Shown in pieces: positions 1,050 through 63,601 of a stretch of DNA of 64,000 nt (position 1 is the stretch's first letter; every line of letters starts with the position of its first letter). The stretch is from Rikenellaceae bacterium. GTDB lineage: Bacteria; Bacteroidota; Bacteroidia; Bacteroidales; Rikenellaceae. The translations under genes were made by a program, and so were the position numbers. The stretch is taken from the NCBI GenBank assembly GCA_015060075.1, contig SUZE01000007.1, positions 9,119 to 73,118 of the forward strand, read 5' to 3'. The notes under the pieces were generated by a model. The model worked only from the letters and a program-made list of their open reading frames with translations, was not told the DNA's origin and searched no databases.

Positions 1050-3962
1050 ATGAAAGCAAGAAGATTTTTTGCATTTGTGGCCGGAGCAGCGATGCTTCTT
1101 GGCATTGGTGGTTGTACAGACCCTGATGAGGGTTTGAACGACTCGACCGAGGCGACTATCACAGTATCGCCTGAAACTATTGCAACTACATTGCAGGGAG
1201 AGGTAAAGGAGATTACCGTTACTTCGAACGCAGCTTGGGTTGTTACGTGCGACCAAGCAGATGTTACCATCGAGCCTATGGCAGGTGCTAAAAACGGTAC
1301 AGTTACCGTTACTATTCCCACTGTAACCACTGCTCGTAACTTCTCGATTAAGTTTGAGGCAAGCAAGCAGGCTTCAATGCAGGGTATTCCTTACACCTCG
1401 ACAGCCGAGGCCGCTGTTGCTGTATATCAGAACGAGGGTGGCGACACCAGCGTTGCAACCAATGTTAAGGAGGTGCGTGCGCTGTTGTCTGCATTGGAGG
1501 TTACTGAAACTAAAACAGACATCACCGATGAGCTCAAAGCGATGACTCTCACCGGTATCGTTGTGGCAGAGCCTAACGGAAATATGTCTAACGAGTACAC
1601 CATCAACGTTCAAGATGACTCAACAGAGGCTAATTCCGGACTTACCGTTTACAGCGTAGAGAACGCAAAGCAGTTGAAGAAGGGTGATGTTGTTAAGTTC
1701 TCGTTGGCAACTGCACAGTATCAATACTTCAAGGGTTTGTTGCAACTCGTTGCCGGTGCTTCGGTAGAGGTTGTAACAGAGGGCGTAGAGGTTAATCCTA
1801 TTGAGGTAGCAGTTGCAGACCTCAAGAACTACGAGGCGCAGTATGTGAAGGTTAGCGGTTTGACTCCTGCAAAGAGTGCAATCGGTAAGGCTTGGAACTC
1901 TACAACAGACGGTGTAAATGTTAATTTCACCACTGCAAATGGTGAGACTCTTATCGTTCGAGTAAACAAGGCTGCATCGTTTAAGAACGATATCGTTCCT
2001 GCAAAGAGTGGTGCACTTTGTGGTGTAATCAGCATCTACAACAACGATGTTCAGTTGATGCCGCAGTACGCAAGTGATATTCAACTTACCGAGGATGCTC
2101 CTGAATTGGAGGTTCAGGTTGTAACTATCGCCGAGATTACTAAGGCTGGTACATACAAGGTTGAAAACGCTTGGGTTGTAGGTTTCAATGGCAACGGTCC
2201 AATCTTCACCGATGCAAGCGGTGCTTACATCAACAGCTTTATTTACCAACACAACTACAAGACTATCGGTCAGAAGGTTACCATCGAGGGTGATGTAACA
2301 GTTCGTCAGGGTGGTTTCCAATTCGATGGTCCTACCGTTACACCATTGGAGGGTACTGAGGATGTTGTATATCCTGAAAATCCGACCGTATATGAGGGTG
2401 AGACAGTTGTTGCTCTTTGCGAGAAGTTCCTGAGTGGTGCTCACCTTGCAGAGTATGCTGCATTTAAGGGTGTTGCTGAGTATGATGGAACATACTACAA
2501 CCTCGTATTTGCAGGTCTTGATGGCAATAAGTATAAGGGCTCACTCTCTAAGACTCCGGATGCAAGTCTTGGTCTTGATAAGTTGAATGGCGTACCTGTT
2601 ACTTTGTACGGCTTCGTTGTAGATTATGGTGGTCAGTATTTGAGCATTGTTCCTACAAGCGTAGTAGAGGATAAGGACGCTGTTGTTCTTGCCGCTGATG
2701 CTATCACTAATGTTCCAAAGGACGGTGTAACTAATGCTACTCACGATATCACAGTTATTGGTATCGATGCTGTTACTACCGAGGTTGATGGTACTGTTGT
2801 AACTGCTGCTTCGGTTTCGGGCAATGTTTTGACCTACTCGGTATCGGCTAACACCGACAAGTCTCGCGAGGGTTGGATTAAGTTGAGCGCAGAGGGCGTA
2901 GAGACTGTAACCGTTGTTGTTAAGCAGTCGAGCGCACTCGCTTACAACTTTATGTCTGACGCTCCGTTTGTAGATTCTACCGGAAACTACAATGGCAACG
3001 CAAAGGTTAATGGCTCGATTGAGGTTAATGCAAGCGGTTTCAAGATTGGAACAGGTAAACTCTCTGGCTATTTCGCATCACAGCCGGTTGCAGTAGATGG
3101 CGACGTAACATTGGAGTTCTATGCAGTGGCATGGAAGGGCAAGAGCGCAACATTGTATGTTCGCAAGCAGGGCTCGACAGAGCTTCTTGGTCAGTTCATT
3201 TTGAAGGCAAATGATGGCGCAAACAATCAATCACCTTATACATTGACTCTTAATGACGACAACTACTACTCTGTAGCTGTTCCTGGCGTTGCTGCAAATA
3301 CCGTATTGGAGTTTGCAACAGATGCATCGTTTGGTAATGTTGATAACACTTCGAGTGGTCGTGCAATCGTTGTAGGCGTTCACCTCTTGGGTGGCACTCC
3401 ATCAACTCCTGATACTCCAGTTACTCCTGAGCCAGAGCCAGAACCAAATCCTGGTACACCGGAAGTAGATGGAAATGCATATCAGCTCACGCTTGCAGAT
3501 ATCAAATCAATCACTTATGCTACAGAGTGGGCGGCTTGGTCTACAACTGCCGGCGATGGCTCTGCTTGGAGTGGATTTGCATACAAGCAGACAAATTACT
3601 ATCAGTTTAGCTGGAAGAAGGATGTTGCTGCTACGGCAAATCAGAATCTTTCCCATATTCTTTGCCCTGAGGTTCCTGCTGGAAAGAAGATAACAAAGAT
3701 TACTATTACTCCGGACGCCACAACTACAAATGACCGTAAGTTTGTTGTATTGCCTGCAGATTTCGCTTACACAACAACTGTTGATGCTAACGCAACGGAG
3801 GCTGTTAATGCTGCTTATGCTGTTTCGGAGCCAACAGTAAAGAATTCGACTACACCAATCGTTATTGATTTGAGTGGCGTTGCAAACTTGCCACAGCAAG
3901 TGCAGATTCGTACTATACTTGGTGCTGCGTACGTTACAAATATTAAGGTTAGCTTCGAGTAA
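1050..3962 (+). CDS. Large surface lipoprotein with an N-terminal BACON-like domain and repeated OB-like (DUF5689-like) modules; function unknown, possibly nucleic-acid binding
   Basis: It has a lipoprotein signal (MKARRFFAFVAGAAMLLGIGGC). A BACON-like segment follows (ITVSPETIATTLQGEVKEITVTSNAAWVV). Repeated modules resemble the 9525-10958 product. A PEPEPEPNP linker is present. It is the first gene of a co-directional nuclease/TonB cluster. Confidence 0.6.
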   Translation: MKARRFFAFVAGAAMLLGIGGCTDPDEGLNDSTEATITVSPETIATTLQGEVKEITVTSNAAWVVTCDQADVTIEPMAGAKNGTVTVTIPTVTTARNFSIKFEASKQASMQGIPYTSTAEAAVAVYQNEGGDTSVATNVKEVRALLSALEVTETKTDITDELKAMTLTGIVVAEPNGNMSNEYTINVQDDSTEANSGLTVYSVENAKQLKKGDVVKFSLATAQYQYFKGLLQLVAGASVEVVTEGVEVNPIEVAVADLKNYEAQYVKVSGLTPAKSAIGKAWNSTTDGVNVNFTTANGETLIVRVNKAASFKNDIVPAKSGALCGVISIYNNDVQLMPQYASDIQLTEDAPELEVQVVTIAEITKAGTYKVENAWVVGFNGNGPIFTDASGAYINSFIYQHNYKTIGQKVTIEGDVTVRQGGFQFDGPTVTPLEGTEDVVYPENPTVYEGETVVALCEKFLSGAHLAEYAAFKGVAEYDGTYYNLVFAGLDGNKYKGSLSKTPDASLGLDKLNGVPVTLYGFVVDYGGQYLSIVPTSVVEDKDAVVLAADAITNVPKDGVTNATHDITVIGIDAVTTEVDGTVVTAASVSGNVLTYSVSANTDKSREGWIKLSAEGVETVTVVVKQSSALAYNFMSDAPFVDSTGNYNGNAKVNGSIEVNASGFKIGTGKLSGYFASQPVAVDGDVTLEFYAVAWKGKSATLYVRKQGSTELLGQFILKANDGANNQSPYTLTLNDDNYYSVAVPGVAANTVLEFATDASFGNVDNTSSGRAIVVGVHLLGGTPSTPDTPVTPEPEPEPNPGTPEVDGNAYQLTLADIKSITYATEWAAWSTTAGDGSAWSGFAYKQTNYYQFSWKKDVAATANQNLSHILCPEVPAGKKITKITITPDATTTNDRKFVVLPADFAYTTTVDANATEAVNAAYAVSEPTVKNSTTPIVIDLSGVANLPQQVQIRTILGAAYVTNIKVSFE

Positions 3963-3974
3963 CCATTTCATAAT

Positions 3975-5402: not shown

Positions 5403-5470
5403 AAACGGAAAACTAAAAAAATATAATAATCAGCTAATGGCTAATGGCTAAAAGCTAAAAGCAAAAAAAC

Positions 5471-14040: not shown

Positions 14041-14199
14041 TTAATTGACCAATTGAGAATTGACAATTATAGGTAAAGTGCCGAGCAAAATCGCTCGGCA
14101 CTTTTTAGTTATAGTATGAGCTTATATAAATAATATTGCCTTGCAGAATATGCAAGGCAATACCTTTAATTATCAATTATCAACTGTCAATTATCAATT
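14041..14199. repeat. Palindromic word-array module: aattgac-type words (forward), two hairpins, aattatcaatt-type words (reverse)
   Basis: The left words are ttaattgaccaattgagaattgacaatt. The hairpins lie at 14075-14104 and 14134-14162. The right words are aattatcaattatcaactgtcaattatcaatt. The module fills the whole gap between two convergent genes. Confidence 0.65.
14075..14106. terminator. Probable bidirectional terminator between convergent genes
   Basis: The 12-bp stem aaagtgccgagc/gctcggcacttt has A-rich sequence upstream and T-rich sequence downstream. Confidence 0.7.
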
Positions 14200-15886: not shown

Positions 15887-15935
15887 AAATGCAAAATTCA
15901 AAATTCAAAATGCAGAGTTAAAAGTTAAATACTCC

Positions 15936-27083: not shown

Positions 27084-27161
27084 CTTCGTTCATATTTTTG
27101 CGTGCAAAAATACGAATTAAAATTGATAATTGACAATTGACAGTTGACAATTAAAGGTATT

Positions 27162-29842: not shown

Positions 29843-30134
29843 GAGGGGGCGCAGGTTTTTGTGGCATTGAATGGCATTCGGGCTTTCAGCCCTTAATGGC
29901 ATAGAATGACACTCAATGACAGCGCAGTCTGCGACTGCTTAATGACAAAAAAATCGCTGAGCATAGAAAAATTGCTCAGCGATACCTTTAATTGTCACCG
30001 CTGCGATTAAGCCGAGCGCAGAGGCTGCTTGCAGACTTTGCCGAGGCGGAGCAGTGAAGACCGAAGGTCAATTCTCAATTATCAATTGTCAATTTGATAA
30101 GAAAAGCAACCCGAAGGCCGCTTTTCTTATCATC

Positions 30135-31921: not shown

Positions 31922-32028
31922 ATTATATTTAGCTTTTAGCCATTGGCTTGTTTCAAATTGACAATTGACGAATTGACAATTGACAATTAATTGTATTTTT
32001 TGTTTAGACCTACGGCGCAATTTTACAT

Positions 32029-32058
32029 CTCTCGTCTCTCGTCTTTCGTCTCTCGTCT
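32029..32058. repeat. CTCTCGT-word array, identical 30-mer also at 50518-50547
   Basis: The sequence ctctcgtctctcgtctttcgtctctcgtct occurs at both places, each upstream of a TAnnTTTG -7 box. Confidence 0.7.
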
Positions 32059-32966: not shown

Positions 32967-33138
32967 ATCCGTTGCTCGTAAGCGGTGGCAAAGGTACAAC
33001 AAAAATTTAGAATTAAAAATTAAAAATTAAAAATTTGATAAAAAATATATATTATTCTTTTAATTGTCAATTATCAATTGTCACTTAAATTCCTTGTGCG
33101 CCACCTTACTTGCCGTTATAAATTGCACCGTTTTCCGT

Positions 33139-35913: not shown

Positions 35914-36094
35914 AAAATCAGCCAATGGCCAATGGTTAAAGGCTAATGGCTCACGAAAATCTGCAAGGTTGAAAAATTGTTAATAAGTGAAATGGTCGCT
36001 ATACCTCCTATTATTATAGGAAAGTGTAATTTTGTAAGCGTAAAAAAGTGAGAACTCACAAAATTGCATAGGAAGACTCAAAACATTATATAAA

Positions 36095-47449: not shown

Positions 47450-48532
47450 ATGAGACATTTAACTGACCCTACGGATTTAACCCGCAAAGAGACCGATGAT
47501 ATTGTCGCTCTGGCACTCGATATTATAGCAAACCGTCAGAAATATAGCGAGGTTTGCAAAGGCAAGAAGTTGGCTACGCTCTTCTACGAGCCTTCAACCC
47601 GTACCCGTTTGAGCTTTACCGCTGCAATGATGGAGTTGGGCGGTAATGTACTCGGCTTTTCCGATGCTAACTCTTCGTCTGTAAGCAAGGGCGAAACGGT
47701 GGAGGATACCGTTCGTGTAGTTGGTAACTTCGTGGATATTATCGCTATGCGCCACCATATTGAGGGTGCTCCACTCGATGCTTCGATGGTGTCGAAAGTG
47801 CCTATCATCAATGCTGGCGATGGTGCGCATGCTCACCCAACACAGACTCTGACCGACCTCTTGACGATGACTCGTGAGTTGGGACACTTGGATAACCTTA
47901 CAATCGGCTTCTGTGGCGATTTGCTCTATGGTCGTACCGTTCATTCGCTTATTAAGGCGATGTCACGCTACGAGGGGACCAAGTTTGTGCTTATCGCTCC
48001 CGATTCGCTCCGTTTGCCCGACTATATCAAGCACGATGTGTGCGAGAAGAATGGCATAGAGTATCGTGAGGTATCTTCGCTCGAAGAGGTTATCGGAGAG
48101 TTGGATATCCTCTATATGACACGTGTTCAGCAGGAGCGTTTCTCGGATAAGGCGGAGTATGAGCGTGTGAAAGATTGCTATATCCTCGATGCCGAGAAGA
48201 TGGCGTTGGCAAAGGAGAAGATGGCAGTTTTGCACCCACTCCCTCGTGTAAACGAGATTGCAAAGGAGGTTGATGCTGACCCTCGTGCAGCCTATTTCCG
48301 TCAGGTGGAGAATGGTAAGTTCGTGCGTATGGCACTGATGTACACACTGCTGAAGTGGAAAGAAGAGGGCGCAGAGCCGTTGCATAACCACGAAGGCGTG
48401 GAGGTTGAAGGCTTGACTTGCCCGAACAAGAAGTGCATCTGCAACAACGAGCCTGTGGATTATAAGTTCCAACTCTCGGAGGGTGGGGTATATCGTTGCC
48501 TCTACTGCTCGACAAAGGCAGAAGAGAGATAG
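47450..48532 (+). CDS. pyrB: Aspartate carbamoyltransferase catalytic chain fused to a PyrI-type zinc domain
   Basis: The ATCase motifs are [13 protein letters not shown] and HPLPR. The C-terminal roughly 45 aa, [37 protein letters not shown], have the Cx4C...Cx2C pattern of the PyrI zinc domain. No separate pyrI gene follows. Confidence 0.88.
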
Positions 48533-48556: not shown

Positions 48557-48599
48557 GTGAGGAGTGAGGAGATAGGAGATAGGAGATAGGAGTGAGGAG
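48557..48599. repeat. GGAG-word tandem array (gtgaggag / ataggag)
   Basis: The sequence is gtgaggagtgaggagataggagataggagataggagtgaggag. It lies immediately outside the left inverted repeat. Confidence 0.65.
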
Positions 48600-48601
48600 T
48601 T

Positions 48602-48809
48602 GAAAACTTTCAGCGCACCCCATAAAGCGAACGGAGTGAGCGCCCCCAGTAAGGGCGGAACGCCCGCCCCCAGTAACCCCCAGAAAGGTTGCGCCGTGAT
48701 GAGAGTAGGAGTCCGCACAACCGTAACACCGTAACAAGCGTAACATAACCGTAACAGCGTAACAAGGGGCGTGCCTATGTTACGGTGTTACGCTGTTACG
48801 CTGTTACGC
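48602..48809. repeat. Left inverted-repeat arm: GC-rich hairpin region plus a palindromic array of 5 forward and 4 reverse CGTAACA units
   Basis: The array reads ccgtaacaccgtaacaagcgtaacataaccgtaacagcgtaaca-aggggcgtgcct-atgttacggtgttacgctgttacgctgttacgc. Confidence 0.8.
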
Positions 48810-49948
48810 TACGGTAGATATAGAACACCTCCGTTCTCAACTACAAGCCTTTTGGCTATCGCCCTCGCCACCTTCACACGGGCGTGGGCACGATTTATAT
48901 TCTCACTCTCTACCAACTTGGTTATCATTATTTTGCGCTCAATACCATTCGGATAACCCTCTTGTATTATCCGCACGCAACTATTTACTTCGGTGGTCGC
49001 TTCACTCGACTCGTTAGGCATCTCACACTCTTCGGGTAAGCCACTCTCCGTAATATGGAATGCAAAGGGTGCAAACTCCTCGTTACGGCAGTATTGTGGC
49101 TCCACAACGGAACGCTCTCCAACCTTACGGACATATATCATTGTTTCGACCTTACGCTGCAAAGTCGAGCCTATATGTCCTCTCGCTTTGTCGCTATTGG
49201 GGTTGGTGTGTAGTACGCTCATTATATGGCAGCGATACTCCGTGGAGAGTGCCATAAATTCACCTACTACGGCATCACTCTCCTCGATGCAGTTGCTGTT
49301 ATACATCAAGTCGCTAATGCCATCTACAACCACCAATCGTGGGTGGTAGTAGGCTATTGCGGCACGCAGTATGTTGAAACGCTCCTTCGGCTCTACCTCA
49401 CGCAGAGTGAGCGTTTGCAACCTATCGAAGGGCGCAGTGTCATCTACGCCAGCCATACGATGTATGCGCTGAATAACTTTCAGCACATGGTTAGCCGACT
49501 GCTCGGTATCAACCCACAACACCGTAGTTTTGGGTGAGGGTGCAATACCGAAGCAGGCTGTACCGGGTGAGCGTAGGAGTGCGCCTACAAGAGCCGTACA
49601 GAGAAATGTTTTCTTGCTCTTGGCAGCACCTACGATAGCCGAGATATTGCCTTCGGAGGCTATGACCGAGCCGTAGTGCGAAATTATCGGTACGGGTTCG
49701 GGAATATTGGCTGACGCATCTATAAGGTGCGGTTTGATGGCGTTATAACGGCAGTTCTGCTCGATACGCTCACGCACCTCATCACTATTATACTTAGGTT
49801 TCAACTCCTCGTATAGTTCGCTTTTGGGCGATTGCGGTGAGGAGTCTGCGGGTGGCTTGCCCGAAGCGAATTCGAGCATCTCTTTGAGCGAAGTACCCAA
49901 TAAAGGTGTACGGGTAGTATTCTCACTACCCTTATCAGTAATTGACAT
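48809..49948 (-). CDS. RecA-fold P-loop ATPase (RepA/AAA_25-like) with a probable C-terminal winged-helix domain
   Basis: The Walker A-like motif is VGAAKSKKTF and the Walker B motif is PRLVVVDGISDL. A sensor block HIMSVLHTNPNSDKARGHIGSTLQRKVE follows. The basic helical C-terminus is ERKIMITKLVESENINRAHARVKVARAIAKRL. The stop codon abuts the left arm. Confidence 0.7.
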   Translation of the reverse strand: MSITDKGSENTTRTPLLGTSLKEMLEFASGKPPADSSPQSPKSELYEELKPKYNSDEVRERIEQNCRYNAIKPHLIDASANIPEPVPIISHYGSVIASEGNISAIVGAAKSKKTFLCTALVGALLRSPGTACFGIAPSPKTTVLWVDTEQSANHVLKVIQRIHRMAGVDDTAPFDRLQTLTLREVEPKERFNILRAAIAYYHPRLVVVDGISDLMYNSNCIEESDAVVGEFMALSTEYRCHIMSVLHTNPNSDKARGHIGSTLQRKVETMIYVRKVGERSVVEPQYCRNEEFAPFAFHITESGLPEECEMPNESSEATTEVNSCVRIIQEGYPNGIERKIMITKLVESENINRAHARVKVARAIAKRLVVENGGVLYLP

Positions 49949-50058
49949 ATTTTTAATAGATTAAAGGTTAATAAATAGGTCTTTGTGGCCAAAAGACAGT
50001 GCAAATATACAACACGAAAAAGCCCTTGTCAATATATATTTTTTAGAAAAAGTTACAA

Positions 50059-50280
50059 AGCGTAACAGCGTAACAGCGTAACATAGGCACGCCCCTTGTT
50101 ACGGTGTTACGGTTTTGTTACGCTTGTTACGGTGTTACGGTTTTGTTACGGGTGTTACGGTTATGCGGACTCCGAGGGTTGTCAAGGCGCAGACTTTTCT
50201 GGGGGTTACTGGGGGCGGGCGTTCCGCCCTTACTGGGGGCGCTCACTCCGTTCGCTTTATGGGGTGCGCTGAAAGTTTTC
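50059..50280. repeat. Right inverted-repeat arm: 3 forward and 7 reverse CGTAACA units plus the GC-rich region
   Basis: It is the reverse complement of the left arm but with different unit counts. The centre is ataggcacgcccctt. Confidence 0.8.
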
Positions 50281-50517
50281 TGCTACCCCGAACTCTGAGC
50301 GTGGTCACGGCGCAGACTTAAATGGCATGCGCTCGTTTCACTCGCTGAATGACAAGGAATGACATGCGCTCCCGTTGGTCGCTGAATGACAAGCGCTGGT
50401 TGCTGTTGTCAGTGCGCCCTGCTATTAAGCAGTCGTTAGACTGCGCTGTCATTCAATGCCATCTTATTGGCGCAACTCTCGTCTATCGTCTTGAATTATC
50501 GTTATTTTTTGAAATTT

Positions 50518-50547
50518 CTCTCGTCTCTCGTCTTTCGTCTCTCGTCT
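50518..50547. repeat. CTCTCGT-word array, identical to 32029-32058
   Basis: The sequence ctctcgtctctcgtctttcgtctctcgtct ends 5 nt before the rlmD -7 box TATCTTTG at 50553-50560. Confidence 0.7.
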
Positions 50548-63500: not shown

Positions 63501-63601
63501 CCCACAACCTTATTAATAGTTTTCCGTTTTCCGCTTTCCGTTCTTAAAAAACCTTTGCCGAGTGGCTGCAAGAGCCACCCGACAAAGAGATTGAAAGAGT
63601 A

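Follow-up and report, generated by a model that had tools for sequence, protein, structure and literature searches.

The window—the whole 64-kb stretch of Rikenellaceae DNA that was analyzed—contains, at positions 48602-50280, a single gene placed between two inverted arrays of a 7-bp unit, CGTAACA. The element lies between pyrB, which carries a PyrI_C domain, and a TRAM/U5 methyltransferase gene of the rlmD type, both directly beside it. A first-pass annotation made from the letters alone had described it as an iteron-flanked, Rep-like ATPase gene embedded in housekeeping DNA, without recognizing the element type. The features of the locus and its immediate context are the following.

48557-48600, no strand: heptamer tandem array GGAGATA/GGAGTGA, lying between pyrB stop and left arm (context)
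48602-48689, no strand: left outer module, non-palindromic, with AAAACTTTCAGCGC and CCCCCAGTAA repeats; 88 nt, 99% complementary to 50193-50280
48716-48811, no strand: downstream array, 5 CGTAACA (48722-48764) and 4 inverted units (48778-48808) around AGGGGCGTGCCTA (48765-48777)
48809-49948, minus strand: ATPase gene, 379 aa, the sole long ORF between the arms
49949-50056, minus strand: AT-rich spacer with the gene promoter, GC 17-37%
49979-49997, minus strand: 5'UTR palindrome within the AT-rich spacer
50032-50002, minus strand: promoter TTGACA-17-TATATT(TG), with TTGACA at 50032-50027 and TATATTTG at 50009-50002
50057-50162, no strand: upstream array, 3 CGTAACA (50061-50083) and 7 inverted units (50097-50159) around TAGGCACGCCCCT (50084-50096)
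50166-50280, no strand: outer part of the right arm, a 25-nt module GGACTCCGAGGGTTGTCAAGGCGCA at 50167-50191 and the 88-nt outer module at 50193-50280
50281-50475, no strand: repeat-rich stretch beyond the inverted repeat, about 200 nt long, ahead of the rlmD promoter
50517-50547, no strand: tandem array of the heptamer TCTCGTC, immediately before the rlmD promoter, the same as the array at 32028-32058 (context)

The two arms (48602-48811 and 50057-50280) are reverse complements that align over 222 columns with 86% identity and 10 gap openings, in agreement with the inverted repeats of roughly 210 bp first described. The arms hold all 19 units that had been counted—five forward and four reverse on the left, three forward and seven reverse on the right—out of 30 exact CGTAACA in the window; the other 11 are isolated singles in the remaining 62 kb. 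Shuffling the window as a whole yields 9.3 ± 3.0 copies and at most 18, and no further unit clusters occur elsewhere in the 64 kb. Units within an array are spaced 8-11 bp apart and change orientation around a central sequence, the upstream centre being the reverse complement of the downstream one; the arrays are indeed the local palindromes that had been described. As single-stranded DNA the downstream array is predicted to form a strong hairpin (-30.8 kcal/mol, z -7.7); the left outer module folds no better than shuffles (z -0.7). A search of Rfam at a permissive threshold returned nothing but sub-threshold matches to miRNA hairpins, which arise because the array is palindromic. The gene stop codon (48809-48811) touches the last unit of the downstream array (48802-48808), again as annotated, and the array begins there; at its other end the gene has the promoter of its own that had been claimed for it. 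The AT-rich spacer that holds this promoter is a candidate DNA-melting region.

On the right, repeats continue beyond the end of the inverted repeat: a second copy of the 25-nt arm module lies at 50290-50314, within a 31-nt repeat (50289-50319), followed by two 36-nt direct repeats at 50321-50393, and the same stretch contains an inverted GAATGACA/TGTCATTC pair. The stretch 50281-50475 is probably part of the insert, and these roughly 200 nt of extra repeats beyond 50280 make the right boundary blurrier than the inverted repeat implies. The flanking heptamer arrays were considered as parts of the element and rejected; similar arrays recur in many intergenic stretches elsewhere in the window. 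Neither junction (GAGTT/GAAAAC on the left, GTTTTC/TGCTA on the right) has a target-site duplication, and the gene content of the window includes no integrase, transposase, or recombinase gene near the unit, as the first-pass annotation had also observed. No DnaA-box cluster was found, and in the window neither GC skew nor gene strand switches at the unit.

The encoded protein consists of an N-terminal region, an AAA_25 RecA-fold ATPase (residues ~96-300), and a predicted C-terminal winged helix (~322-379). Pfam AAA_25 matches residues 96-249 with 47.9 bits against a gathering cut-off of 27, which confirms the RepA/AAA_25-like assignment made at the outset. Walker A reads GAAKSKKT and Walker B VVVDG; 26 homologues show no variation in either motif, K110-T114 and D209 included, nor in the DTEQ glutamate or the KARGH loop. 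An AF2 model matches Dmc1, KaiC, RadA, and Twinkle (E about 1e-9 to 1e-10), and on this model the ATPase core has a RecA/DnaB-type fold, not an AAA+ fold. The last 64 residues are modelled with a pLDDT of 91.7 in a helix-helix-helix-strand-strand topology, and their best fold matches are all winged helices (MCM-C, Rpa2, IclR, MarR) with probabilities of 0.9-0.98; the small size of the domain limits the E-values of these matches to 0.1-0.6. The winged helix that had been called probable is thus well supported by the model.

Sequence searches of the PDB, with the whole protein and with a C-terminal profile, gave no significant match; Pfam and NCBIfam contained no match at E <= 1 to a WH1-WH2 Rep family of the Rep_3/RepE/pi/TrfA type, the NCBIfam search giving noise only; and PADLOC defence models gave no family match at E <= 0.1. 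There was no match to a DDE, HUH, serine, or tyrosine transposase; the single ORF is wholly explained by ATPase and winged helix, and beyond AAA_25 it matches no family in Pfam, NCBIfam, or PHROGs. The weak matches that PHROGs did return were to UvsX and to primase/helicase, relatives in IMG/VR are only ~30% identical and lie inside ordinary phage contigs, and identity to phage and plasmid primase/helicases is likewise ~30%. The ATPase of Bacteroidales integrase/toprim/relaxase elements, encoded beside a toprim primase, is 40% identical; the suspected likeness to an origin module of iterons and Rep holds. The protein does not belong to a known chromosomal housekeeping family, an outcome that the first-pass annotation had named as a refutation.

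The ATPase, which we call Rep, has about 2000 homologues, and all members assigned to an organism come from Alistipes or Rikenellaceae. Proteins related to it form more than 250 diverged clusters, and all 120 homologues listed carry PF13481. The family is large, so far found only in Alistipes/Rikenellaceae, and unnamed; we found no description of it in the literature. As first noted, the element is of no recognizable type. The gene lies between inverted repeats at 68 of 80 species-level genomic loci, and several copies can be present per genome. In 34 typed elements, neighboring units of the same orientation are spaced 8-9 bp apart in 309 of 375 intervals, with about four units per half. Array centres could be read 42 times, in 24 of the 34 elements; they average 8 nt (range 2-21 nt) with a GC content of 83%. 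Where both centres of an element were readable, they were in most cases reverse complements of each other. The downstream array begins 0-14 nt past the stop codon or within the 3' end of the ORF, and the second array is located upstream of the AT-rich promoter spacer, which averages 34% GC where the locus as a whole averages 51%. What the family conserves is the gene together with its two palindromic unit arrays, set in inverted orientation; the 210-bp inverted repeat is peculiar to the window locus.

Within the family the ATPase gene is under purifying selection, with dN/dS values of 0.08-0.34. Some members carry an addition at the C-terminus: an acidic tail ending in PF, similar to the SSB-Ct sequence DDDIPF, is found in 26 of 81, and in a sister clade it reads DDIPF or DEDCPF, again acidic and SSB-like. 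The protein of the window has no such tail. By analogy with the SSB-Ct tail (PMC5872125), the tail of the sister clade suggests that these proteins may recruit host replisome proteins directly. Housekeeping genes make up the nearest neighbors inspected at the 80 loci, pyrB, rlmD, yebC, murG, valS, purE, and prfC among them, and integrase, relaxase/Mob, and primase genes are absent both beside the window unit and among those neighbors.

The 7-mer unit differs in sequence from element to element, and seven of the eight genomes that hold two cassettes have unrelated units in them. When core identity is regressed out, winged-helix identity drops with unit distance (rho -0.25, 0 of 2000 permutations); judged by these comparisons, unit sequence and winged helix co-vary across the family. 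A simple code linking helix residues to unit bases was looked for and is not evident; L031 (the L numbers denote individual loci), for example, has CGTAACA with a different helix. Co-variation also bears on the idea that the cassettes are decayed, functionless remnants of an integrated mobilizable element or plasmid. Such an origin would fit the closest homologues, which sit in elements with integrase, primase, and relaxase, and the lack of all these partner genes in the cassette; however, the ORFs are intact and under purifying selection, the same compact architecture recurs in the 68 loci mentioned above, the catalytic motifs are invariant, and the arrays change together with the DNA-binding domain. 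This reading is already unlikely, and we grant it only the slimmest chance.

The unit is not conserved in place among relatives, which would have refuted the first-pass view; not one of the 80 loci has its cassette between pyrB and rlmD. At sites that are shared between species the cassette is found in both orientations, and several occupants of the same site belong to non-orthologous lineages. The orthologous cassettes L060 and L066 are mutually inverted between flanks of 88-92% identity, with breakpoints inside the arms, and L023/L025 and L047/L038 are likewise inverted relative to their flanks. Orientation variation, which had been proposed as a check, was found between species and not within the species of the window, where all retrieved contigs spanning the site agree: the unit is fixed, 100% identical over the whole pyrB-rlmD gap, with no variation in copy, position, or orientation, although minority orientations could easily escape notice in assemblies. 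Four contigs of another species also show a single orientation. Nothing points to current activity of the window unit in its species. The search for other copies, also proposed, was amply rewarded, as the homologues at other loci show, while that for an empty site was not: none of the closest pyrB relatives has a clean one between pyrB and rlmD, because they hold GH97-like or Sel1-like genes, or a rearrangement, in that gap. A Rep-less yebC upstream region was seen in L202, but in a different context.

The inversions raise the possibility of an invertible segment, a phase switch or recombination module in which crossover would take place at the arrays and the gene would be flipped, by the RecA-fold protein or by host recombination, so that transcription is redirected into either neighbor. 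The three inverted pairs would suit it, as would the mutually inverted arrays of most typed elements with both centres read. Against this, the spanning contigs of both species just described have one orientation each, the promoter lies inside the segment and flipping would leave the gene itself unswitched, a site-specific recombinase is absent nearby, and any long inverted repeat is expected to invert between species; we regard a switch of this kind as very unlikely.

Long inverted repeats also recall a non-autonomous transposon, mobilized in trans by an unlinked transposase, with the ATPase as cargo or as an accessory of the TnsC/IstB/MuB type. The nearly identical outer ends in the window, the varied genomic contexts, the non-orthologous cassettes at one site, and the several copies per genome can all be accommodated by such a transposon. 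The ends themselves, however, do not behave as transposon termini: there is no target-site duplication, the outermost ends of the inverted repeat differ between family members, strains with Rep proteins of 95-97% identity have entirely different outer arms, and in many elements (L001, for example) the inverted repeat is the unit array alone. Known transposition ATPases have an AAA+ fold, in contrast to the RecA fold modelled here, and no near-identical cassette copies were found in different contexts. A transposon is thus quite improbable, if somewhat less so than a phase switch.

A further reading sees in the protein a DNA-binding ATPase that has been domesticated as a local regulator, an insulator, or an organizer of the chromosome, and that by binding its arrays governs its own gene and the promoters next to it, with no part in replication. 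The position of the cassettes speaks for it. Their upstream side faces a divergently transcribed neighbor in 52 of 61 loci, and flanking genes are oriented (-,+) in 26 loci and (-,-) in 15, compared with three convergent and three co-directional cases; in L060, L064, and L066 the inverted repeat even extends into the TAnnTTTG promoters of both neighbors. Fixation within the species and the lack of a skew or strand switch at the unit agree with it as well. A regulator would have no need, however, for a conserved helicase-type ATPase with full catalytic motifs or for an SSB-like tail, the neighbors are unrelated housekeeping genes, non-orthologous lineages replace one another's cassettes at one site, and the closest homologues belong to replication and mobilization modules. 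We consider regulation without replication unlikely.

The closest analogue of the cassette is the self-loading Rep helicase of staphylococcal pathogenicity islands (SaPIs) with its origin, and its closest homologues are the ATPases of Bacteroidales mobilizable elements. In Rep1 and PriRep5 of SaPIs from Staphylococcus aureus a single protein serves as initiator and as helicase and reads short repeats of 5-7 bp through a winged helix at its C-terminus; 6-12 iterons follow the rep ORF immediately, divided into two halves of opposite direction, and specificity differs between elements (PMC9371898). The cassette resembles this arrangement in its predicted C-terminal winged helix, in its short repeats placed in two opposed groups directly downstream of the ORF (5+4 in the window), and in unit sequences that are specific to the element. 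It differs in several respects: SaPI Reps are AAA+ proteins of SF3 or SF6, whereas the cassette protein is of RecA fold (AAA_25, SF4-like); the SaPI origin has an AT-rich centre, whereas here the short centre is rich in G/C and AT-rich DNA is found next to the upstream array; and the cassette has a second, inverted array across the gene and no primase, integrase, packaging genes, or island.

Bacteroidales integrative mobilizable elements encode an integrase, an HTH protein, the ATPase, a toprim primase, MobC, and a relaxase (WP_007656440.1 in B. finegoldii 'plasmid 57' is an example of the ATPase). Their ATPase is the closest sequence relative outside the family, similar in length and 36-42% identical over residues ~40-310, and one such element, L173, has a second ATPase that ends in an HTH and whose gene contains a 3+3 palindromic array within its 3' end. 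These NBU/Tn4555-like elements are multi-gene units with their own integrase, primase, and relaxase, whereas the Alistipes cassettes lack these genes and have arrays on both sides.

Plasmid replicons offer partial parallels. RSF1010/IncQ RepA and DnaB-type helicase domains are grouped in Pfam AAA_25, and the cassette protein resembles IncQ RepA as a P-loop ATPase of RecA fold that has the motifs of hexameric replicative helicases; however, IncQ plasmids use a separate RepC to read their iterons and encode a separate primase, whereas the cassette ATPase carries a fused winged helix. In P1 (incC-repA-incA) and F (ori2-repE-incC) the rep gene lies between iteron sets and is subject to handcuffing control. 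The cassette is similar as a compact array-rep-array unit of ~1.5-2 kb with its promoter putatively under repeat control, and its second array is a plausible control locus; the P1 and F Reps are WH1-WH2 initiators without an ATPase, with iterons of 19-22 bp, and theirs are plasmid replicons whereas the cassettes are chromosomal single-gene inserts. Archaeal orc1/cdc6 or whiP genes adjoin origins with inverted ORB repeats and are thought to be captured extrachromosomal replicons—there, too, several initiator genes are found per chromosome, each beside its own inverted sites and with its own specificity. Orc1/Cdc6 proteins are AAA+ initiators and not helicases, and their origin function has been shown in archaea, whereas that of the cassette is putative; we know of no bacterium in which several such origins are in use. 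A REP/RAYT-like system was also considered, given the single gene flanked by short inverted repeats between housekeeping genes. RAYT transposases are HUH nucleases and REPs are scattered genome-wide; this candidate was rejected, as the 64 kb contain no dispersed unit clusters and the protein has no nuclease domain.

The RecA-fold ATPase with its winged helix, the opposed inverted arrays, the co-variation of unit and helix, and the purifying selection together lead us to read the unit as a self-standing cassette that combines an initiator helicase with the origin-like sites it would recognize, a reading in which our confidence is about evenly balanced with our doubt. The winged helices of an oligomer would read the units spaced 8-9 bp apart, and the opposed half-arrays would seat two oligomers, probably hexamers, head to head, as modelled for the SaPI self-loading Rep helicases. 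The AT-rich spacer beside the upstream array would then melt; since this spacer also carries the gene promoter, binding would autoregulate the gene. The array at the stop codon may pair with the upstream array through bound protein, and looping or handcuffing of this kind would keep the cassette quiet in the chromosome. Recombination between the arrays would, owing to their inverted arrangement, flip the gene instead of deleting it, which would explain both the persistence of the cassette and its two orientations. Several observations weigh against an origin: array centres are rich in G/C where SaPI origins are AT-rich, the cassette has neither a primase nor any other replication gene, a DnaA-box cluster and a switch of skew or strand are absent, the window protein lacks the SSB-like tail, and the unit is fixed within its species. 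An origin that fires within the chromosome should also be harmful, and the model therefore needs tight repression.

A bolder version of the initiator-helicase reading would have several mutually orthogonal, plasmid-like origin-initiator cassettes in Alistipes chromosomes, with a self-loading helicase as the sole gene, firing in place as extra origins or to amplify neighboring genes, and spreading or swapping between promoter-containing intergenic sites along a route coupled to replication or recombination, without a transposase or integrase. We think this rather unlikely, but if in-place firing and transposase-free spread were true, the cassettes would form a new class of selfish or mobile element and give a bacterial chromosome a natural potential for multiple origins.

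Should the initiator-helicase reading be true, these would be the smallest self-contained units of initiator and origin seen embedded in bacterial chromosomes, and their persistence, flipping, and change of site without a recombinase gene would raise the questions of how an extra origin is tolerated and what moves the cassettes. In each cassette examined the winged helix has a 7-bp site of its own, which would make the family a natural set for a recognition code and a source of orthogonal DNA-binding or replication parts for Bacteroidota, a phylum poor in genetic tools; the SSB-like tails of one clade would be a concrete link to the host replisome that is open to test. If the protein is a regulator instead, it would be of an unusual, ATP-driven type that is repeated at many housekeeping promoters. 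Either way, a defined genomic signature would become available for some 2000 proteins that now go by 'AAA family ATPase' or 'hypothetical'.

Parts of the outer arms in the window recur elsewhere in the family. The AAAACTTTCAGCGC and CCCCCAGTAA motifs of the left outer module are found again near the Rep genes of L005 and L009, and the 25-mer GGACTCCGAGGGTTGTCAAGGCGCA is kept in the arms of L005, L011, L014, L017, and L024, whose Reps are 52-73% identical to that of the window.

The cassette between pyrB and rlmD is best read as a stand-alone initiator helicase together with its origin—a reading to which we give about an even chance. The first-pass annotation had likened it to an iteron and Rep origin module, and by analogy that likeness remains the best-supported reading; it draws on family architecture, on covariation between the repeat units and the winged helix, and on the resemblance to the Rep system of Staphylococcus aureus pathogenicity islands (SaPI).

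Parts of the cassette (window positions)
48602-48811, left inverted arm
48765-48777, AGGGGCGTGCCTA, where the units of the left arm switch orientation
48809-49948, minus strand, the only ORF, encoding Rep (379 aa)
108-nt AT-rich spacer ahead of the ORF, GC 17-37%
50057-50280, right inverted arm
50084-50096, reverse complement of AGGGGCGTGCCTA
50281-50475, extra repeats (~200 nt) outside the inverted repeat, ahead of the rlmD promoter

The structure described from sequence stands. The arms are reverse complements with 86% identity across 222 aligned columns, the outer 88 nt being 99% complementary, and they carry 19 copies of CGTAACA (left, 5 forward and 4 reverse; right, 3 forward and 7 reverse). 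The 64-kb window holds 30 copies in total, against 9.3 +/- 3.0 in shuffled sequence (maximum 18); the remaining 11 are isolated. The left array starts exactly at the end of the ORF, which has its own promoter (TTGACA-17-TATATTTG) within the AT-rich spacer. The gene pyrB and an rlmD-type methyltransferase gene flank the cassette, and a recombinase gene and a target duplication are both absent; there is evidence against a TIR element mobilised in trans. A palindrome or hairpin lies directly past the predicted Rep transcription start (49979-49997, GTCTTTGTGGCCAAAAGAC), with counterparts in the related loci L001 (about 3933-3947, GTCTTTCGCGAAGAC) and L005 (about 3943-3965); it is retained with differing loop and stem bases, and could represent an operator or some structure of the 5'UTR. 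In the neighbouring pyrB (47450-48532, 360-aa product) a single ORF encodes the catalytic domains of aspartate carbamoyltransferase and, at the C-terminus, a PyrI_C zinc domain (PF02748); the catalytic chain thus carries a fused piece of the regulatory one.

Both domains proposed for Rep are borne out, the second as a prediction. Residues 96-249 match Pfam AAA_25 at 47.9 bits (cut-off 27), and Walker A (GAAKSKKT), DTEQ, Walker B (VVVDG) and LHTNPNSDKARGH are invariant across 26 homologues; the AF2 model (pLDDT 71) matches RecA-fold ATPases generally, including Dmc1, KaiC, RadA/Sms and Twinkle. The last 64 residues, modelled alone (pLDDT 91.7), are predicted to form a winged helix with helix-helix-helix-hairpin topology, and their top fold matches are all winged helices (MCM C-terminus, Rpa2, IclR/MarR regulators; probability 0.9-0.98), with E-values that are weak because the domain is so small. 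Sequence searches found no solved structure of any relative. The closest relatives outside the family (36-42% identity) are "AAA family ATPases" of Bacteroides, Parabacteroides and Phocaeicola, encoded in modules that combine integrase, HTH, ATPase, toprim primase, MobC and relaxase; remoter ones (about 30%) carry annotations as plasmid or Flavobacterium phage primase/helicases. Across nine close pairs dN/dS is 0.08-0.34, so the Rep gene is kept by selection, and there is likewise evidence against a decaying remnant.

The family is large: a word-indexed search returned 1999 homologues, and an exhaustive HMMER scan, counted in clusters of 50% identity, gave 254 at E <= 1e-30 and 2917 at E <= 1e-10. 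All members with a source-assigned organism come from Alistipes or Rikenellaceae, and existing labels read "AAA family ATPase" or "hypothetical". Inverted repeats flank the gene on both sides in 68 of 80 loci from GTDB species representatives, and nine of the other 12 are truncated at a contig end. In typed elements an array holds, on average, about 8 units, some 4 in each half, with same-orientation neighbours spaced 8 or 9 bp apart in 309 of 375 intervals (34 elements); the downstream array begins 0-14 nt past the stop codon. The centre that the units face averages 8 nt and 83% GC, and the spacer from upstream array to start codon has 34% GC, compared with 51% for the locus on average (24 elements each). 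In most elements with both centres read, the upstream and downstream centres are reverse complements of each other, which makes the two arrays true inverted copies. The 210-bp arms of the window are a local elaboration: L001, which at 85% identity is the closest relative from another species, has unit arrays only. Six elements, with proteins sharing 52-73% identity with the window's, carry a conserved 25-nt module in their arms, GGACTCYGAnGGTGGTCAAGGCGCA or G[GA]ACTCYGAnGGTGGTCAAGGCGCA, of which 21-25 positions are kept (window 50167-50191 and 50290-50314; family loci L005 3654 and 5356, L011 5194, L014 97, L017 3480 and 5024, L024 54 and 159). The cassettes sharing it have different units; the module looks to act in cis in some role apart from unit binding, possibly as a site for a host factor.

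Unit sequence varies by element (CGTAACA, CGTATCA, TGTAACA, AGTTACA, AATTACA, CATTACA, TGTCACA, AGTAACA, GGTAACA and TTTATCA, for example), and the ATPase core evolves more slowly than the winged helix. With core identity regressed out, winged-helix identity drops as unit Hamming distance rises (rho -0.25, reached by 0 of 2000 label permutations), in a test that controls only roughly for shared ancestry. Two cassettes occur together in eight of the sampled genomes, with unrelated units in seven; in the exception, AGTAACA is partly common to loci L053 and L064.

Functionally, the SaPI Rep system is the closest analogue. Its Rep helicase loads itself and reads iterons of 5-6 bp through a C-terminal winged helix; 6-12 of these immediately follow the rep ORF on its downstream side, arranged as two opposed halves, on which two hexamers are thought to load (PMC9371898). 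The cassette differs in having a RecA rather than an AAA+ core, a G/C-rich array centre, a second, inverted array upstream, and no partner genes. Its layout of gene plus array at the 3' end is shared with a Bacteroides mobilizable element, Bacteroides finegoldii "plasmid 57" (NZ_OY725959.1; positions here are those of locus L173). There a further AAA ATPase, ending in an HTH (1420-2517) and with no similarity to the window protein detectable by BLASTP, contains a 3+3 palindromic array (GTGTCCCA / TGGGACA, 2426-2488) inside its own 3' end and is directly followed by a primase-like zinc-finger ORF; such placement may be general in Bacteroidales mobile elements. If the cassette is an initiator with its origin, the AT-rich promoter spacer would serve as melting region and autoregulation site, and bound protein could pair the two arrays (handcuffing); the inverted arrangement would persist because recombination between arrays flips the gene instead of deleting it. 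We found no description of this element type in the searchable literature. The kind to which it belongs, iteron and initiator modules, is already known, and we think it unlikely that the cassette represents a mobile or replicative element of a new class.

The possibility that the region is conserved in place in all relatives did not survive comparison: the cassette occupies the pyrB-rlmD gap in 0 of 80 loci, and the closest pyrB relatives (82-91% identity) hold a GH97-like gene, a Sel1-like gene or a rearrangement there. The junction is a variable spot among close relatives.

Contents of the pyrB-rlmD junction in close relatives
L093 1747-3927, GH97-like glycosidase
L096 1704-3734, 676-aa alanine/glutamate-rich Sel1-like protein
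L095 1682-3975, inversion of the rlmD-nuclease pair

Neighbour clustering gives recurrent cassette sites at yebC/murG, valS/OPT transporter, yicC, plsC, purE, M20 peptidase and prfC, all housekeeping. At the yebC site flanking proteins are 87-98% identical but Rep proteins merely 56-76%, and five of the seven cassettes have their best relative elsewhere (for example L068-L053, 81%; L073-L072, 82%); these cassettes have thus been replaced or relocated. Flank homology ends ~70-100 nt outside the neighbour genes, just beyond their promoters, and in 52 of 61 loci the promoter side of the cassette is opposite a neighbour transcribed divergently from it. There is evidence, too, against the rival reading as a local regulator or insulator. 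In some cassettes the inverted repeat reaches the outward-facing TAnnTTTG promoter boxes of both neighbours (…TTTTTTTTACTATCTTTG; L060 3370-3400 and 5400-5430, L064 133 and 2154, L066 3277 and 5341); either the cassette supplies its neighbours with promoters, or formation of the repeat duplicated promoter sequence.

Across the family, either orientation of the cassette is found at a given site; within species we saw no variation. Loci L060 and L066 have flanks 88-92% identical and cassettes 85.7% identical in opposite orientation, with breakpoints within the arm regions, and similar inversions occur in L023/L025 and L047/L038. Among retrieved contigs spanning the window's site, place and orientation are constant and the pyrB-rlmD gap is 100% identical; there is also evidence against an inverton. 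In four strains of another species (L195-L198, 330 nt upstream of yebC) the Rep gene is kept at 95-97% identity and the outer repeat modules are completely different—palindromic GAGACGC/GCGTCTC heptamers in one strain, CCCTTTAGCGCC...GGCGCGAACTAC repeats in another. The outer arms are hypervariable and uncoupled from the Rep protein.

In 26 of 81 family members the ORF runs through the downstream array, which is translated as low-complexity linkers of VTPVT-, VTDVT- or VSDVS-type. These proteins form a sister clade (seen in L039, L041-L043, L045-L048, L053-L057, L059, L061, L062, L066, L067, L069, L073-L075 and L078; also in L195-L198) and end in ...HYDEDCPF, ...WDDDDAPF or ...LFEDDIPF, acidic tails that match and mimic the conserved C-terminal SSB tip DDDIPF, which binds DnaG and many further DNA-metabolism proteins (PMC5872125). 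The SSB-like tail is absent from the window's clade. Another clade (L008, L009, L015 and the homologous proteins P0106 and P0112) has a different conserved tail, PPP.DEGSITE(G/R)RCS(E/V)V.

Tandem arrays of 7-nt period number 18 in the window against 0-3 in 20 shuffles; 16 are intergenic, as a rule adjoining a stop codon or lying shortly ahead of a TAnnTTTG promoter.

Heptamer arrays (window positions)
5432-5467
14043-14068
14168-14199
15887-15911
27121-27152
30068-30094
31956-31988
32028-32058
33001-33087
35924-35951
48557-48600
50517-50547
63519-63542

Several sites share heptamers (AATTGAC at three, AATTATC at two, and TCTCGTC at two as an identical 29-nt array), and some heptamers resemble cassette units (ATTGACA, TTATCA).
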